In this document: positions 5,438-48,439 of the stretch, piece by piece
Layout: each line of letters opens with the position of its first letter
How positions within the stretch are numbered: the first letter of the stretch is position 1
Origin: Escherichia coli
GTDB lineage: Bacteria; Pseudomonadota; Gammaproteobacteria; Enterobacterales; Enterobacteriaceae
Reading direction: 5' to 3' (one strand)
Length of the DNA: 64,000 bases
NCBI RefSeq assembly: GCF_013315695.1
Contig: NZ_CP054353.1
The notes under the pieces: model-generated
Database searches by the model: none
The model's input: the letters and a program-made list of their open reading frames with translations, nothing else
Told to the model about the DNA's origin: nothing
Translations under genes and position numbers: made by a program

Positions 5438-6106
5438 ATGAAGATTTTTTTGGAGAATCTTTATCATTCTGATTGCTATTTCCTGCCGATAAGAGATAAC
5501 CAGCAAGACCTTGTCGGCGTTGAGTTAATTACCCATTTCTCCAGTGAAGATGGTACGGTTCGTATACCGACGAGTCGGGTTATAGCGCAACTTACCGAGG
5601 AGCAACATTGGCAATTATTTTCTGAGCAGTTGGAATTGCTAAAATCATGCCAACACTTTTTTATTCAACATAAACTCTTTGCCTGGCTTAATTTAACCCC
5701 ACAAGTGGCTACTTTATTATTAGACAGGGATAATTACGCGGGCGAACTATTAAAATATCCGTTTATTGAACTGTTGATTAATGAGAATTACCCGCATCTC
5801 GATGAAGGAAAAGATAATCGCGATCTTTTGTCCTTATCGCAAATGTATCCCCTTGTGTTAGGTAATTTGGGCGCAGGCAATAGCACAATGAGAGCGGTTT
5901 TTGATGGTCTTTTCACCCGCGTCATGCTGGATAAAAGTTTTATTCAGCAACAAATCACGCATCGCTCCTTCGAACCGTTTATTCGTGCGATCCAGGCGCA
6001 AATTTCCCCATGTTGCAATTGCATCATCGCGGGGGGCATTGATACGCCAGAAATAATGGCACAGATTACCCCCTTTGATTTCCATGCTCTCCAGGGATGC
6101 CTGTAG
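5438..6106 (+). CDS. ydiV: Anti-FlhDC factor YdiV (EAL-like), ending at an in-frame TAG that appears premature
   Basis: 222 aa MKIFLENLYHSDCYFLPIRD...; stop TAG at 6104-6106 is followed by 14 in-frame sense codons (PAVPVNQITTLVQR) and TAA. K-12 YdiV is recalled as 237 aa. Confidence 0.85.
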   Translation: MKIFLENLYHSDCYFLPIRDNQQDLVGVELITHFSSEDGTVRIPTSRVIAQLTEEQHWQLFSEQLELLKSCQHFFIQHKLFAWLNLTPQVATLLLDRDNYAGELLKYPFIELLINENYPHLDEGKDNRDLLSLSQMYPLVLGNLGAGNSTMRAVFDGLFTRVMLDKSFIQQQITHRSFEPFIRAIQAQISPCCNCIIAGGIDTPEIMAQITPFDFHALQGCL

Positions 6107-6174
6107 CCTGCCGTTCCTGTAAATCAGATAACGACGTTGGTTCAGCGATAACCCTCCTGTTTGCTGGTGTTTAA

Positions 6175-7650
<1,476 letters not shown>

Positions 7651-7653
7651 AGG

Positions 7654-7845
7654 CTACTTGGTCAACAGCAGCTTGCCAGCCTGAGTTTTACGGAGCAGAT
7701 ATTCTTGCCCGTCATGATCGATAATCAGTTTGCCATCCGGACCTAACAGTGTCTGGCTGGTAATTCGCCGAATGGGCTGCGGGGAAGCGGTCTTGTGATT
7801 GGCATCCGTTTCAGGCGTGAGTTTTCTGCTATCCGTATAACGCAT
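7654..7845 (-). CDS. ydiE: HemP/HmuP-like small protein YdiE
   Basis: 63 aa from internal Met ([18 protein letters not shown]...KLLLTK); the 72-aa ORF in the track has a 9-aa extension. Confidence 0.8.
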
Positions 7846-7850
7846 AAAAA

Positions 7851-7895
7851 TTAATAATAATTGATATAACAATAATTCTTATTATCAATATTCTG
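7851..7895 (-). promoter_or_regulatory. Putative Fur box upstream of ydiE
   Basis: Minus-strand reading GAATATTGATAATAAGAATTATTGTTATATCAATTATTATT contains overlapping GATAAT/ATTAT hexamers resembling the Fur consensus. Confidence 0.4.
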
Positions 7896-7976
7896 GCGGG
7901 CCAGAGCAAGCAGTAATGTGTTGAGAAGACAACAAGTTGCGCGGAAATGCCCATCCCATCAGGAATGGGCACGCAT

Positions 7977-9023
7977 TCAGAAGCGGGTATCTACCGCAGA
8001 GGCGAGTTTTTCGACCAGGCGTTCGGTATCTTCCCAGCCCAGACACGGGTCGGTAATGGATTGACCGTAAGTGAGCGGCTGACCGCCGACGATTTTTTGC
8101 GTTCCTTCGCGCAGGAAACTTTCCGCCATAATTCCAGCAATCGCCGTAGAGCCATTGCGGATTTGCTGACAAATATCCTCACAAACTTCTAACTGGCGAC
8201 GGTGCTGCTTCTGGCAGTTACCGTGGCTGAAATCCACCACCAGATGTTCAGGTAAATCAAACTCGTGCAGCGTATCGCAGGCTGCGGCGATATCATCGGC
8301 ATGATAATTCGGTTTTTTGCCGCCACGCATAATAATGTGGCCATACGGGTTGCCGCTGGTCTGATAGATGGTCATCTGACCATTTTTGTCTGGCGAGAGG
8401 AACATATGGCTGGCGCGGGCTGCGCGGATAGCATCCACAGCAATCCGCGTGTTGCCATCGGTACCATTTTTAAAACCTACCGGACAGGAGAGTGCCGAAG
8501 CCATTTCACGGTGGATCTGACTTTCGGTAGTACGTGCGCCAATCGCGCCCCAACTGATTAAATCAGCAATAAACTGACCGGTCACCATATCGAGGAACTC
8601 AGTCGCGGTAGGGACGCCCAGCTCATTTACCTGTAAAAGTAATTTGCGCGCCAGCTCCAGACCGTGATTTACCCGATAGCTACCGTTTAAATCTGGATCG
8701 GAGATTAGTCCTTTCCAGCCGACAACAGTTCGTGGTTTTTCAAAATAGGTGCGCATTACGATTTCCAGCCGTGACTGGTACTGGTTGCGCAGCGACTGCA
8801 GACGGGTGGCGTACTCCATTGCAGCGGTGAGATCGTGGATCGAGCAGGGGCCAATAATGACCAACAGTCGCTTATCTTCACCATTGAGTATTTTTTCAAT
8901 TCTGCGGCGGGAGTCGGTGACATGGGTGGCGACGCCAGTCGTTACGGGATACCGTAGCGCGAGTTCGGCGGGCGTTACCAGGCTCTCAATACGCGCAGTA
9001 CGGAGTTCGTCAGTTCTGTTCAT
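7977..9023 (-). CDS. aroH: Trp-sensitive DAHP synthase
   Basis: 348 aa MNRTDELRTARIESLVTPAEL...; class I DAHP synthase. Confidence 0.95.
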   Translation of the reverse strand: MNRTDELRTARIESLVTPAELALRYPVTTGVATHVTDSRRRIEKILNGEDKRLLVIIGPCSIHDLTAAMEYATRLQSLRNQYQSRLEIVMRTYFEKPRTVVGWKGLISDPDLNGSYRVNHGLELARKLLLQVNELGVPTATEFLDMVTGQFIADLISWGAIGARTTESQIHREMASALSCPVGFKNGTDGNTRIAVDAIRAARASHMFLSPDKNGQMTIYQTSGNPYGHIIMRGGKKPNYHADDIAAACDTLHEFDLPEHLVVDFSHGNCQKQHRRQLEVCEDICQQIRNGSTAIAGIMAESFLREGTQKIVGGQPLTYGQSITDPCLGWEDTERLVEKLASAVDTRF

Positions 9024-9168: not shown

Positions 9169-9186
9169 GCACTAGTTTTCTAGTAC
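9169..9186 (-). promoter_or_regulatory. Putative TrpR operator (aroH)
   Basis: GCACTAGTTTTCTAGTAC, near-palindromic match to the Trp box core ACTAG; overlaps the ppsR stop codon. Confidence 0.5.
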
Positions 9187-10013
9187 ATTCGACGGCTAAG
9201 GCCCATGATATCGAGGATCTTGGTGGCAATCTCTTCTACCGAATAATTGGTACTGTTAATCCACGGGATCTGATTTTTACGGTACAACGCTTCCACTTCC
9301 GCGACTTCCATCCTGCACTGACGAAGCGAGGCATAGCGACTGTTCTCCCGACGTTCCTCGCGAATCGCCGCCAGACGTTCCGGGTCGATAGTCAGGCCGA
9401 ACAATTTGTGCTGAAGCGGTTTGAGCGACGCGGGTAGCACCAGATTATCCATATCGTCGGCAATAAAGGGGTAGTTTGCCGCGCGGATACCAAATTGCAT
9501 TGCCAGATACAGACTGGTGGGGGTTTTACCACAGCGAGAAACACCGAGCAGGATCACCTGAGCCTGGTCCAGATTGCGCAACGAAATGCCGTCGTCATGG
9601 GCAAGGGTGTAATCAATCGCCGCAATACGCGCATCATATTTATTGAGGTTATTAGGGTTCAGGCCATGGGTACGATGAGCAATCGGCGTGGGATCCAGTT
9701 TCATCTCTTGTTGTAGCGGGGCAACCAGCGCCTGAACGATATCCTGGCAAAAGCCCTCACTTTGCAAGATGATGGCGCGAATCTCCGGCAACACGATGGA
9801 GTAGAAGACCAGCGGGCGCACACCTGTCTGGTGATAAATTGCGTCAATCTGATCCTTCACTGCCCGTGCACGGCTCTCATTTTCGACAAACGGCAGCGTA
9901 ATGCTGCTGATAGTGACGGGAAATTGTGACATTACTGCGTGTCCTAATACCTCCGCAGTTATTGCCGTACCATCAGAAATATAAAAAACGTGGCGATCAA
10001 CAGCATTATCCAT
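9180..10013 (-). CDS. ppsR: PEP synthetase regulatory protein (kinase/pyrophosphorylase)
   Basis: 277 aa, P-loop GVSRCGKT, divergent from ppsA. Confidence 0.95.
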
Positions 10014-23748: not shown

Positions 23749-23803
23749 GGTGATGCTGCCAACTTACTGATTTAGTGTATGATGGTGTTTTTGAGGTGCT
23801 CCA

Positions 23804-24079
23804 GTGGCTTCTGTTTCTATCAGCTGTCCCTCCTGTTCAGCTACTGACGGGGTGGTGCGTAACGGCAAAAGCACCGCCGGACATCAGCGCTATCTCTGCT
23901 CTCACTGCCGTAAAACATGGCAACTGCAGTTCACTTACACCGCTTCTCAACCCGGTACGCACCAGAAAATCATTGATATGGCCATGAATGGCGTTGGATG
24001 CCGGGCAACAGCCCGCATTATGGGCGTTGGCCTCAACACGATTTTACGTCACTTAAAAAACTCAGGCCGCAGTCGGTAA
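23804..24079 (+). CDS. insA: IS1 InsA
   Basis: Protein identical to the copy at 17176-17451. Confidence 0.9.
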
Positions 24080-24501
24080 CCTCGCGCATACAGCCGGGCA
24101 GTGACGTCATCGTCTGCGCGGAAATGGACGAACAGTGGGGCTATGTCGGGGCTAAATCGCGCCAGCGCTGGCTGTTTTACGCGTATGACAGGCTCCGGAA
24201 GACGGTTGTTGCGCACGTATTCGGTGAACGCACTATGGCGACGCTGGGGCGTCTTATGAGCCTGCTGTCACCCTTTGACGTGGTGATATGGATGACGGAT
24301 GGCTGGCCGCTGTATGAATCCCGCCTGAAGGGAAAGCTGCACGTAATCAGCAAGCGATATACGCAGCGAATTGAGCGGCATAACCTGAATCTGAGGCAGC
24401 ACCTGGCACGGCTGGGACGGAAGTCGCTGTCGTTCTCAAAATCGGTGGAGCTGCATGACAAAGTCATCGGGCATTATCTGAACATAAAACACTATCAATA
24501 A
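23998..24501 (+). CDS. insB: IS1 InsB reading frame
   Basis: Protein identical to the copy at 17370-17873. Confidence 0.85.
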
Positions 24502-24516
24502 GTTGGAGTCATTACC

Positions 24517-38466: not shown

Positions 38467-38549
38467 AACGCTGCACTTTTTTACCTATCTCTTAAATAGT
38501 CATTTTCAATACAACTTTTTCTTTTTCATCACAGCCTTAATGCTCCTTA

Positions 38550-38565
38550 GATAATAATCATTATC
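38550..38565. promoter_or_regulatory. Fur box (distal) in the suf regulatory region
   Basis: GATAATAATCATTATC, near-consensus. Confidence 0.5.
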
Positions 38566-38684
38566 TAACAATGAGATACCTAATTCTTAGCGTGCCTGTT
38601 AACCCACACATCAGGGTCTATGCTTATTAAAAGCAGGAAAAAAGCATGTTTTACGGTAAAGCCCCTGCGTTTGCTGGGTTGAAC

Positions 38685-38699
38685 TGATAATCATTATCA
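38685..38699. promoter_or_regulatory. Fur box overlapping the sufA promoter
   Basis: TGATAATCATTATCA about 45-60 bp upstream of the sufA ATG. Confidence 0.55.
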
Positions 38700-38744
38700 C
38701 TAACATGCTGTTATACGCTGAAAGCGATGAAGTGAGGTAAATCG

Positions 38745-39113
38745 ATGGACATGCATTCAGGAACCTTTAATCCACAGGATTTCGCCTGGCAGGGCTTAAC
38801 GCTGACACCCGCAGCCGCTGTCCACATCCGCGAGCTGGTGGCAAAGCAGCCGGGTATGGTCGGCGTGCGCTTAGGCGTGAAGCAAACGGGCTGCGCGGGC
38901 TTTGGCTATGTGCTCGACAGTGTTAGCGAGCCGGACAAAGACGATCTGCTGTTTGAACACGACGGCGCGAAGCTGTTTGTCCCGCTGCAAGCGATGCCGT
39001 TTATTGATGGCACGGAAGTCGATTTCGTTCGTGAAGGACTTAATCAGATATTCAAATTTCACAACCCTAAAGCCCAGAATGAATGTGGCTGTGGCGAAAG
39101 CTTTGGGGTATAG
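38745..39113 (+). CDS. sufA: Fe-S cluster A-type carrier
   Basis: 122 aa; C-terminal CGCGESF motif. Confidence 0.95.
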
Positions 39114-39121
39114 GCGGTACT

Positions 39122-40609
39122 ATGTCTCGTAATACTGAAGCAACTGACGATATCAAAACCTGGACCGGCGGCCCGCTGAATTATAAAGAAGGATTCTTCA
39201 CCCAGTTAGCCACCGATGAGCTGGCAAAGGGAATAAACGAAGAGGTGGTGCGCGCAATTTCGGCGAAGCGTAATGAGCCGGAGTGGATGCTGGAGTTTCG
39301 TCTCAACGCCTATCGCGCATGGCTGGAGATGGAAGAACCGCACTGGTTGAAAGCGCACTACGACAAGCTGAATTATCAGGATTACAGCTACTACTCAGCA
39401 CCATCGTGCGGTAATTGTGACGACAACTGCGCGTCTGAACCCGGCGCGGTGCAGCAAACTGGCGCGAACGCCTTTTTAAGTAAAGAGGTGGAGGCGGCGT
39501 TTGAGCAGTTGGGCGTTCCCGTGCGGGAAGGCAAAGAGGTGGCAGTGGATGCCATTTTCGACTCTGTTTCGGTTGCCACTACTTATCGCGAAAAACTGGC
39601 GGAGCAGGGAATTATTTTTTGTTCCTTTGGCGAGGCGATCCACGATCACCCGGAACTGGTGCGTAAATATCTCGGCACCGTGGTGCCGGGGAATGACAAC
39701 TTCTTTGCCGCACTTAATGCGGCGGTAGCCTCTGACGGTACGTTTATTTATGTGCCTAAAGGCGTGCGTTGCCCGATGGAACTTTCCACCTATTTTCGCA
39801 TTAACGCGGAAAAAACCGGGCAGTTTGAGCGCACCATTCTGGTGGCCGACGAAGACAGCTACGTCAGCTACATTGAAGGATGTTCCGCTCCGGTGCGTGA
39901 CAGCTATCAGTTACACGCGGCGGTGGTGGAAGTCATCATCCATAAAAACGCCGAGGTGAAATATTCCACGGTACAAAACTGGTTCCCTGGTGATAACAAC
40001 ACCGGCGGTATTCTCAACTTCGTCACCAAGCGTGCTTTGTGCGAAGGCGAAAACAGCAAAATGTCATGGACGCAATCAGAAACCGGGTCAGCGATTACGT
40101 GGAAATATCCTAGCTGCATTTTGCGCGGCGATAACTCCATTGGTGAGTTTTACTCAGTGGCACTGACCAGCGGTCATCAGCAAGCGGATACCGGCACCAA
40201 GATGATCCACATCGGTAAAAACACCAAATCGACCATTATCTCGAAAGGGATCTCTGCCGGACATAGTCAGAACAGTTATCGCGGCTTAGTGAAAATCATG
40301 CCGACGGCAACCAATGCGCGCAATTTCACTCAGTGCGACTCAATGCTGATTGGCGCTAATTGTGGGGCGCATACCTTCCCGTATGTCGAATGTCGCAATA
40401 ACAGCGCACAACTGGAGCACGAGGCAACGACATCACGTATTGGTGAAGATCAACTGTTTTACTGCCTGCAACGCGGGATCAGCGAAGAAGACGCCATCTC
40501 GATGATTGTTAACGGTTTCTGCAAAGACGTGTTCTCAGAACTGCCGCTGGAATTTGCCGTTGAAGCACAAAAACTCCTCGCCATCAGTCTTGAACACAGC
40601 GTCGGATAA
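39122..40609 (+). CDS. sufB: Fe-S cluster assembly scaffold SufB
   Basis: 495 aa from [14 protein letters not shown]... Confidence 0.95.
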
Positions 40610-40618
40610 GGAATAAAC

Positions 40619-41365
40619 ATGTTAAGTATTAAAGATTTACACGTCAGCGTGGAAGATAAAGCTATCCTGCGTGGATTAAGCCTCGACGTTCGTCCCGGCG
40701 AAGTTCACGCCATTATGGGGCCAAACGGTTCTGGCAAAAGTACCTTATCGGCAACGCTTGCCGGACGAGAAGATTATGAGGTGACGGGCGGCACGGTTGA
40801 GTTCAAAGGCAAAGATTTGCTTGCGCTGTCGCCGGAAGATCGTGCAGGTGAAGGCATCTTTATGGCCTTCCAGTATCCGGTGGAAATTCCCGGCGTCAGT
40901 AACCAGTTTTTCCTGCAAACGGCACTTAATGCGGTGCGCAGCTATCGCGGCCAGGAAACGCTCGACCGCTTTGATTTTCAGGATTTGATGGAAGAGAAAA
41001 TCGCTCTCCTGAAGATGCCGGAGGATTTATTAACCCGTTCGGTAAACGTTGGTTTTTCCGGCGGCGAGAAAAAGCGCAACGATATTTTGCAAATGGCGGT
41101 GCTGGAACCGGAGTTATGCATTCTTGATGAGTCGGACTCCGGGCTGGATATTGACGCATTAAAAGTGGTTGCCGATGGCGTGAACTCGCTGCGTGACGGC
41201 AAGCGTTCATTCATCATTGTTACGCACTACCAACGCATTCTCGACTACATCAAGCCTGATTACGTCCATGTGCTGTATCAGGGACGAATTGTGAAATCCG
41301 GCGATTTCACGTTGGTCAAACAACTGGAGGAGCAGGGTTATGGCTGGCTTACCGAACAGCAGTAA
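40619..41365 (+). CDS. sufC: Fe-S assembly ATPase SufC
   Basis: 248 aa; Walker A GPNGSGKST. Confidence 0.95.
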   Translation: MLSIKDLHVSVEDKAILRGLSLDVRPGEVHAIMGPNGSGKSTLSATLAGREDYEVTGGTVEFKGKDLLALSPEDRAGEGIFMAFQYPVEIPGVSNQFFLQTALNAVRSYRGQETLDRFDFQDLMEEKIALLKMPEDLLTRSVNVGFSGGEKKRNDILQMAVLEPELCILDESDSGLDIDALKVVADGVNSLRDGKRSFIIVTHYQRILDYIKPDYVHVLYQGRIVKSGDFTLVKQLEEQGYGWLTEQQ

Positions 41366-42611
41366 CGCGCTGCAACAGTGGCATCACTTGTTTGAAGCTG
41401 AAGGGACAAAACGCTCCCCGCAAGCACAGCAGCATTTACAACAATTGCTGCGTACCGGACTGCCGACACGGAAACATGAAAACTGGAAATATACGCCGCT
41501 GGAAGGGCTGACCAATAGCCAGTTTGTCTGCATTGCGGGAGAGATATCCCCACAGCAGCGAGATGCCTTAGCGTTAACGTTAGACGCTGTGCGGCTGGTA
41601 TTTGTCGATGGACGTTACGTGTCAGCGCTGAGCGATGCAACTGAAGGCAGCGGATATGAAGTGAGCATTAACGACGACCGTCAGGGGTTACCCGACGCTA
41701 TTCAGGCGGAAGTGTTTCTGCATTTGACGGAAAGCCTGGCGCATAGCGTGACGCATATCGCCGTGAAGCGCGGTCAACGGCCGGTAAAGCCATTGCTGTT
41801 AATGCATATCACCCAGGGCGTGGCAGGTGAAGAGGTGAATACTGCCCATTACCGACATCATCTGGATCTGGCGGAAGGTGCCGAAGCAACGGTGATCGAA
41901 CATTTTGTCAGCCTTAATGACGCTCGTCACTTCACCGGCGCACGGTTCACTATCAACGTCGCAGCGAACGCCCACTTGCAGCATATCAAGCTGGCGTTTG
42001 AAAACCCGGTCAGTCACCACTTTGCCCATAACGATTTGTTGCTGGCTGACGATGCCACCGCATTTAGCCACAGTTTCCTGCTGGGTGGCGCAGTGTTACG
42101 ACACAACACCAGTACGCAACTCAATGGCGAAAACAGCACGCTGCGGATCAATAGCCTGGCGATGCCGGTGAAAAACGAGGTGTGTGATACCCGTACCTGG
42201 CTGGAACACAATAAAGGTTTTTGTAACAGTCGACAGTTGCATAAAACTATCGTCAGCGACAAAGGCCGCGCGGTATTTAACGGTTTGATCAACGTCGCGC
42301 AGCACGCCATCAAAACGGATGGTCAGATGACCAACAATAATCTGCTGATGGGCAAACTGGCGGAAGTGGATACGAAACCGCAGCTGGAAATCTATGCAGA
42401 TGATGTGAAATGCAGCCACGGCGCGACGGTGGGGCGTATTGATGATGAACAGATGTTCTATCTGCGCTCGCGCGGGATCAATCAGCAGGATGCCCAGCAG
42501 ATGATCATTTACGCCTTTGCTGCTGAACTGACGGAAGCACTGCGTGATGAGGGTCTTAAACAGCAGGTGCTGGCCCGAATCGGTCAACGGCTGCCAGGAG
42601 GTGCAAGATGA
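41340..42611 (+). CDS. sufD: Fe-S assembly protein SufD
   Basis: 423 aa; overlaps sufC by 26 nt. Confidence 0.95.
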
Positions 42612-48199: not shown

Positions 48200-48439
48200 C
48201 CATTCAGGATGAGGCGATAAGCTTCATCCTGATATTCTTGCTTCAGTTGCGGTCGAGTTAATCATTCTAAATAACAACTGCTGAAATTATACGAATTTCG
48301 ATATGTGTTTTAATTTATAACGATAATATTATTTTTGTTTTCTGCAATGACCGTCACAAATAATTGTCGCTTAAGTTAAATTTATTTCAAATGATAATAA
48401 ATATCAGTTCACTTATAATTTCTTGCTTTGTGATTTTAA

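Follow-up and report, generated by a model that had tools for sequence, protein, structure and literature searches.

The DNA analyzed in the present study (hereafter, the window) is a 64-kb stretch (64,000 nucleotides) of an Escherichia coli chromosome, the orientation of which is reversed relative to K-12. The interval of interest, positions 7846–7976, is exactly the 131-bp spacer between aroH and ydiE. Both genes are encoded on the minus strand; the stop codon of aroH is at 7977, and the ATG of ydiE (hemP) occupies 7845–7843. A 501-bp query around an A+T-rich array in this spacer had matches in 5422 of the 5426 complete E. coli genomes, in which the genes are annotated as aroH, hemP, and selO. 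The genes at the locus are as follows:

6214–7650, plus strand: selO/ydiU
7654–7845, minus strand: coding sequence of ydiE/hemP, 63 aa, HemP domain at residues 27–63
7977–9023, minus strand: aroH
9180–10013, minus strand: ppsR

A preliminary description of this DNA had assigned the gene downstream of the array to the HemP family. This assignment was correct: YdiE matched the Pfam HemP profile (PF10636) with 55.9 bits (cut-off, 25; E=3.7e-15), residues 27–63 spanned the full 37-position profile, and the RefSeq name of the gene is hemP. selO and ydiE are convergent, with only 3 bp between their stop codons (7650–7654), and, therefore, their 3′ ends must overlap. The selO-ydiE pair has been proposed as an "excludon" candidate (PMC12288877).

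Read on the minus strand, the array (7889–7846) is ATTGATAATAAGAATTATTGTTATATCAATTATTATTAATTTTT, and the 3′ end of the spacer on this strand is ...CCAGAATATTGATAATAAGAATTATTGTTATATCAATTATTATTAATTTTTATG. Hexamers of the form NAT(A/T)AT occur at eight positions within 7853–7886, which is the densest 45-bp stretch of the 64-kb window (the runner-up has six). Only one of them, at 7886–7881, is a perfect GATAAT. The preliminary description had reported an array of GATAAT-like hexamers upstream of a hemP-like gene and had drawn it across the whole spacer. The array is real and exceeds what is expected by chance, but its extent is 7843–7889, which is about a third of 7846–7976. It is promoter-proximal; the other two thirds or so of the spacer (7890–7976) consist of the putative −35 region with a conserved −35-like CTTGC, a stretch that is not conserved, and a terminator-like hairpin after aroH.

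Against the classical 19-bp Fur consensus, for which GATAATGATAATCATTATC was used, the best match in the array was 14/19. Across the window, seven sites had exactly this score and two had a higher one. Since 14/19 is common in the window, we did not rely on the consensus and instead used a position weight matrix (PWM) trained on ChIP-exo sites. Plain counting, with either the 19-mer (14/19) or the 7-1-7 form (11/14), was dropped because it did not by itself set the site apart from the background.

The PWM was trained on 16 Fur ChIP-exo peaks of strain W3110 (fepA-fes, fepD-entS, fepB, entC, fiu, efeO, fhuE, tonB, yncD/E, cirA, mntH, exbB, yqjH, sodA, yddA, and yojI), the coordinates of which were obtained from Dataset 2 of PMC10164565; ydiE and sufA were left out. 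A Gibbs sampler was used as the motif finder for a palindromic 19-mer, and the consensus was not used as a seed. The sampler converged on AATGATAATCATTATCATT with an information content of 18.9 bits, which is the 9-1-9 motif already known for Fur. In the whole window, no more than 14 sites scored at least 10 bits. The Fur box of sufA ranked first (20.4 bits) and was the sole site above the ydiE pair. Sites in the ydiE array ranked second (16.0 bits, 7865–7883), third (15.4 bits, 7871–7889), ninth (11.0 bits, 7868–7886), and twelfth (10.2 bits, 7850–7868). The leave-one-out scores of the 16 training sites ranged between 9.9 and 24.5 bits with a median of 19.2, and included 13.0 bits for tonB and 9.9 bits for fhuE. 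Set against this range, the two strongest ydiE sites are, as judged by their PWM scores, ordinary Fur sites of lower-middle strength.

Seven overlapping sites formed a cluster, with centres at 7880, 7877, 7874, 7862, 7859, 7856, and 7852. The two strongest sites were exactly 6 bp apart, and the sites in the cluster were offset by 3 bp, 6 bp, or multiples thereof. This overlapping pattern is the one described for Fur sites by Chen et al. (PMC2189734). The elements of the spacer are as follows:

7843–7889, minus strand: whole cluster of predicted Fur sites (putative operator), seven overlapping 19-bp PWM sites above 0 bits, running into the ydiE start codon
7871–7889, minus strand: predicted Fur dimer site A, ATTGATAATAAGAATTATT, centre 7880, 15.4 bits (K-12 allele, 17.2 bits)
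7865–7883, minus strand: predicted Fur dimer site B, AATAAGAATTATTGTTATA, centre 7874, 16.0 bits (K-12 allele, 17.6 bits); the ChIP-exo peak maps to 7865–7877
7850–7868, minus strand: weaker third predicted Fur site, TATATCAATTATTATTAAT, centre 7859, 10.2 bits, partly conserved across taxa
7868–7886, minus strand: classical 19-bp "Fur box" register, GATAATAAGAATTATTGTT, 14/19 consensus positions (K-12, 15/19), PWM score of 11.0 bits
7874, minus strand: rare C-to-T substitution in the box, C in K-12 and in all 13 other taxa compared
7881–7886, minus strand: candidate −10 element GATAAT inside sites A and B, invariant in 14 taxa, 17 bp downstream of CTTGC
7904–7909, minus strand: candidate −35 element TTGCTC; CTTG at 7910–7907 is invariant in 14 taxa
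7948–7971, minus strand: hairpin UGCCCAUUCC-UGAU-GGGAUGGGCA followed by UUUCC, 6 nt after the aroH stop codon

To assess the conservation of the spacer, one genome per species was scanned with YdiE. Twelve loci could be used, representing Escherichia (E. whittamii and cryptic lineages among them), Citrobacter (7), and Salmonella (2). When the upstream regions were aligned, no invariant block in the spacer was longer than TTGATAATAAnAATCATTGT; its flanks had diverged and contained indels. Among 14 sequences from the three genera, 18 of the 20 positions in 7888–7869 were invariant. The orthologous ydiE Fur sites scored between 10.4 and 24.1 bits, with at least 17.2 bits in 12 of 13 taxa. GATAAT at 7886–7881 was unchanged in the 14 taxa, as was CTTG at 7910–7907, which is located exactly 17 bp upstream of it.

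A Fur site at ydiE has been predicted since the early 2000s. The site is already known: it was covered by an information-theory scan published in 2007, and a 2023 study of nine E. coli strains confirmed it by ChIP-exo and RNA-seq. In the 2007 scan, Chen et al. reported ten overlapping sites (walkers) over a span of 53 bp at ydiE, the strongest of which (20.1 bits) is at 1787602, −35 from the start codon; their table carries neither an F (footprint) nor a G (gel shift) mark for ydiE (PMC2189734). This strongest site is site A of the present study (centre 7880), and the seven-site cluster at 7843–7889 is comparable to the K-12 cluster of Chen et al. In W3110, a Fur ChIP-exo peak is located at 1791295–1791307, and hemP starts at 1791327 (PMC10164565). 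By pairwise alignment, we mapped this peak to 7865–7877 of the window, inside sites A and B. The peak of MG1655 at 1787605–1787617 (PMC10164565) and the strongest site of Chen et al. agree with this mapping.

Expression data are available for the same strains. In the nine E. coli strains, ydiE is a member of the core Fur regulon, and its log2 fold change in Δfur versus the wild type was between +2.2 and +8.1 in eight of them, e.g., +2.87 in MG1655 and +8.14 in W3110 (PMC10164565). BL21 was the exception, with a value of −1.10, i.e., ydiE was down and not up in Δfur (PMC10164565), and Fur control is, therefore, not uniform across strains. In a fur mutant of Salmonella Typhimurium, ydiE was derepressed 7.4-fold; the Fur site predicted there, ATAATAATAATCATTGTG, is orthologous to the one in the window (PMC3212961). 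The view in the preliminary description that a Fur-like box fits an iron-regulated ydiE was borne out by the PWM scores of 15.4 and 16.0 bits, the K-12 ChIP-exo peak, and derepression in fur mutants. An entry "Rcs" for ydiE in PMC3212961 prompted us to compare TAAGAAT... with the RcsAB box by eye. This candidate was rejected; the G is not conserved outside Escherichia, and the match is poor.

Cross-genus conservation suggests TTGCTC(7909–7904)-17-GATAAT(7886–7881) as the ydiE promoter. An alternative promoter, TTGATA(7888–7883)-16-TATCAA(7866–7861), was proposed from genomic SELEX with the RpoD holoenzyme (Shimada et al., PMC3946193). The TATCAA proposed as its −10 element is not conserved outside Escherichia. 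Both candidate promoters would lie partly or wholly under the Fur cluster. [quoted passage not shown] A strict consensus scan of 7500–8200 for sigma-70 promoters and terminators called none; its thresholds exclude a −35 hexamer with 3/6 matches, such as TTGCTC, and a tail of three U, and hence this result is uninformative. Under either promoter model, the ydiE leader would be approximately 30 nt at most. No recognizable Shine-Dalgarno sequence is present in the stretch that separates the ydiE ATG from the Fur box (7846–7875, …TATCAATTATTATTAATTTTTATG). In view of this and of the short leader, translation initiation of ydiE may depend on an unstructured A/U-rich leader.

At the other end of the spacer, the hairpin after aroH has a G+C-rich stem of 10 bp (centroid fold). 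The minimum free energy of a 61-nt segment was −22.1 kcal/mol (z=−3.1 versus shuffles), and the hairpin arms, GCCCAT and ATGGGC, were invariant in 14 taxa. The U-tract behind the hairpin consists of three U only, and the terminator scan, which needs five, made no call. We consider this hairpin to probably be the aroH terminator with a weak U-tract. In RNA-seq of the wild type, ydiE was approximately 25-fold below aroH, and it changed independently of aroH in Δfur (PMC10164565); both observations support this reading of the hairpin, and the difference in level fits efficient termination. An Rfam search of 7500–8200 with E-values up to 1 returned no RNA family.

We conclude, with a probability of approximately 0.93, that the A+T-rich array at 7843–7889 (minus strand) serves as the operator through which Fur acts on the ydiE (hemP) promoter. 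The scores, statistical excess, conservation, and coordinate match with the ChIP-exo peak were computed in the present study, and occupancy and derepression were taken from the literature on orthologous sequences. Fur most likely represses ydiE by promoter occlusion. When iron is plentiful, Fe2+-Fur dimers would bind to the two strong overlapping 19-bp sites centred at 7880 and 7874, and the 6-base spacing would place two dimers on opposite faces of the helix. Occupancy would probably extend to the weaker site centred at 7859 and thereby reach the start codon. The Fur sites would cover the −10 region and the presumed transcription start of the ydiE promoter, and RNA polymerase would be excluded. 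When iron is scarce, Fur would leave the DNA and ydiE would be transcribed. The identification of the array adds little beyond a correct annotation and does not address what YdiE/HemP does biochemically in E. coli.

Other explanations of the array were considered. It may be mere A+T-rich promoter DNA or curved DNA, either H-NS-bound or UP-like, the likeness of which to Fur sites stems from composition, with the iron regulation of ydiE being indirect. The 50-bp A+T-rich part of the spacer is 88% A+T, the spacer is flagged as H-NS-bound ("HNS") in the genomic SELEX table (PMC3946193), and the match to the classical consensus is 14/19 only. However, dinucleotide-preserving shuffles of the 131-bp spacer seldom reached a maximum of at least 16.0 bits (P=0.003; 0.34%), and 0 of 5000 contained four sites scoring 10 bits or more. 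When the 50-bp part alone was shuffled, the maximum was reached with P=0.013 (1.3%), and the four-site cluster was again found in 0 of 5000. The check named in the preliminary description, a Fur PWM scan, thus spoke for Fur, with ranks 2 and 3 of the window at the array and a cluster absent from 5000 shuffles. Moreover, where the A+T content is 75% or higher over 50 bp, scores elsewhere in the window were mostly below 6 bits; high scores were found at ydiE, ydhY, and sufA only, and the latter two are Fur targets themselves. The conservation concerns specific bases and tracks the Fur motif rather than A+T richness, and ChIP-exo places Fur at exactly this spot in the K-12 orthologue. We consider it very improbable that composition explains the array. 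We assign the lowest probability of all to the possibility that ydiE is mainly expressed through read-through from aroH, with no promoter of its own in the array and with Fur acting not by promoter occlusion but as a roadblock. In favour of this, the two genes point in the same direction with only 131 bp between them, the hairpin with its three U was not called by the terminator scan, and no promoter passed the strict consensus scan. However, the two genes are uncoupled in RNA-seq: ydiE had approximately 10 units and aroH approximately 280 in MG1655, and ydiE rose to approximately 86 in Δfur while aroH fell (PMC10164565). Furthermore, SELEX with the RpoD holoenzyme detected a promoter in the spacer (PMC3946193), and the CTTGC-17-GATAAT arrangement is conserved.

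The remaining alternative concerns position 7874, at which the window differs from other genomes. Searches with 41-mers centred on this position in the 5426 complete E. coli genomes found T in 10 and C in 5379 (99%). In MS 21-1, the closest relative, the aligned spacer differs from the window at 7874 alone. SCU-485 carries T on a different haplotype, which implies either two or more independent origins of the change or its transfer by recombination. The T allele removes the consensus C of the 19-mer (the G of the TGATAAT half-site on the other strand). An operator that is functional in most E. coli may, thus, be weakened in this strain, and ydiE may be partly or fully derepressed from a decaying or retuned operator. 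The near-invariance of C and the loss of a consensus base point in this direction, as do the decreases in the PWM scores of site A from 17.2 to 15.4 bits (−1.8) and of site B from 17.6 to 16.0 bits (−1.6). However, these decreases are small, and both sites remain well within the range of proven sites, such as tonB and fhuE. In addition, the T allele raises the score of the 3-bp-offset site (7868–7886) from 4.2 to 11.0 bits, and three or four sites still reach 10 bits. The net effect of T on the Fur operator is predicted from these scores to be modest. Therefore, we regard a weakened operator as unlikely and infer that the strain behaves like K-12 despite the substitution. It is similarly doubtful that this change at an otherwise invariant position retunes the Fur repression of ydiE in the lineages carrying T. 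If it does, 7874 T would be a natural cis-regulatory variant of a member of the core Fur regulon. The variant is a small novelty and a minor lead for natural variation in Fur regulation.

The Fur operator proposed here resembles the ydiE (b1705) cluster of E. coli K-12 in the gene order aroH-ydiE-selO, the position of the strongest site at −35, and the multi-site architecture with 3- and 6-bp offsets. It differs from K-12 in having T instead of C at 7874; eight further differences in the spacer are all outside the box. The locus is also similar to ydiE of Salmonella Typhimurium (STM1346), the orthologous site and Fur-dependent repression of which were described above. In Salmonella and Citrobacter, TAATAAT replaces the TAAGAAT of Escherichia, and site A is stronger (24.1 versus 15–17 bits). 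The N-terminus of YdiE and the upstream spacer in Salmonella differ from those in the window. The classical Fur boxes of iron uptake genes repress transcription by promoter occlusion. Similar to the classical boxes of sufA, fepA-fes, entC, cirA, and sodA, the ydiE operator consists of palindromic 9-1-9/7-1-7 sites in overlapping copies 6 bp apart, which would lie over promoter elements. In contrast to these boxes, the ydiE score is lower-middle, and the target is a 63-aa HemP-family protein. To our knowledge, no haem-uptake operon is linked to ydiE in K-12-like strains of E. coli. In Yersinia enterocolitica, a HemP-family gene likewise lies behind a Fur box in hemP-hemR (hemPRSTUV; cited in PMC3212961). 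However, Yersinia hemP heads a haem-uptake operon, whereas ydiE in the window stands alone, convergent with selO and with no adjacent haem transporter.

The PWM scan also detected sites elsewhere in the window. The sufA promoter Fur box (ACTGATAATCATTATCACT, 38683–38701) precedes the sufA ATG (38745) by 44 bp and served as an internal positive control. Two weaker satellites are present upstream of it, at 38550–38568 (9.8 bits) and 38492–38510 (10.1 bits). Upstream of ydhY, the A+T-rich region contains a site of 14.2 bits (48390–48408). Chen et al. (2007) listed a ydhY Fur cluster of 19.9 bits at −255 (PMC2189734), and ydhY and ydhV are members of the Fur-2 iModulon (PMC10164565). The site at 48390–48408 is consistent with both. 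Another site (13.1 bits, 5450–5468) lies within the ydiV coding sequence, shortly after its ATG (5438) and approximately 10 bp from the mapped "ydiU,ydiV intragenic" Fur ChIP-exo peak (W3110 1793696–1793708) when colinearity is assumed. A second match in ydiV, at 5887–5905, scored 13.6 bits.

YdiV is an anti-FlhDC factor. In the window, ydiV (5438–6151, plus strand) carries a TGG-to-TAG change at 6104–6106 (W223*), which removes the last 15 residues. A 41-mer centred on this change matched none of the 5426 complete E. coli genomes, and AF3 has TGG. W223* may be either a nonsense mutation specific to this strain or an artefact of sequencing. AF3 (NZ_OZ547117.1, a blood isolate) is the most similar complete genome, but is not identical to the window: its IS1 elements are arranged differently, its ydiV is intact, and it carries a sufA-sufD′ deletion. 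AF3 lacks approximately 2.8 kb of the window (38761–41579), comprising sufA, sufB, sufC, and the 5′ part of sufD; its sufD, annotated as a pseudogene, directly follows the sufA promoter. We also noted a four-gene insert at 13212–16853 between ppsA and fadK, which encodes an anion permease, a 2-hydroxyacid dehydrogenase, a YiaL-family protein, and an SDR oxidoreductase, and is presumably not part of K-12. The ydiP/ydiF region is interrupted by two copies of IS1 (17121–17890 and 23749–24516), one of which is shifted relative to AF3.
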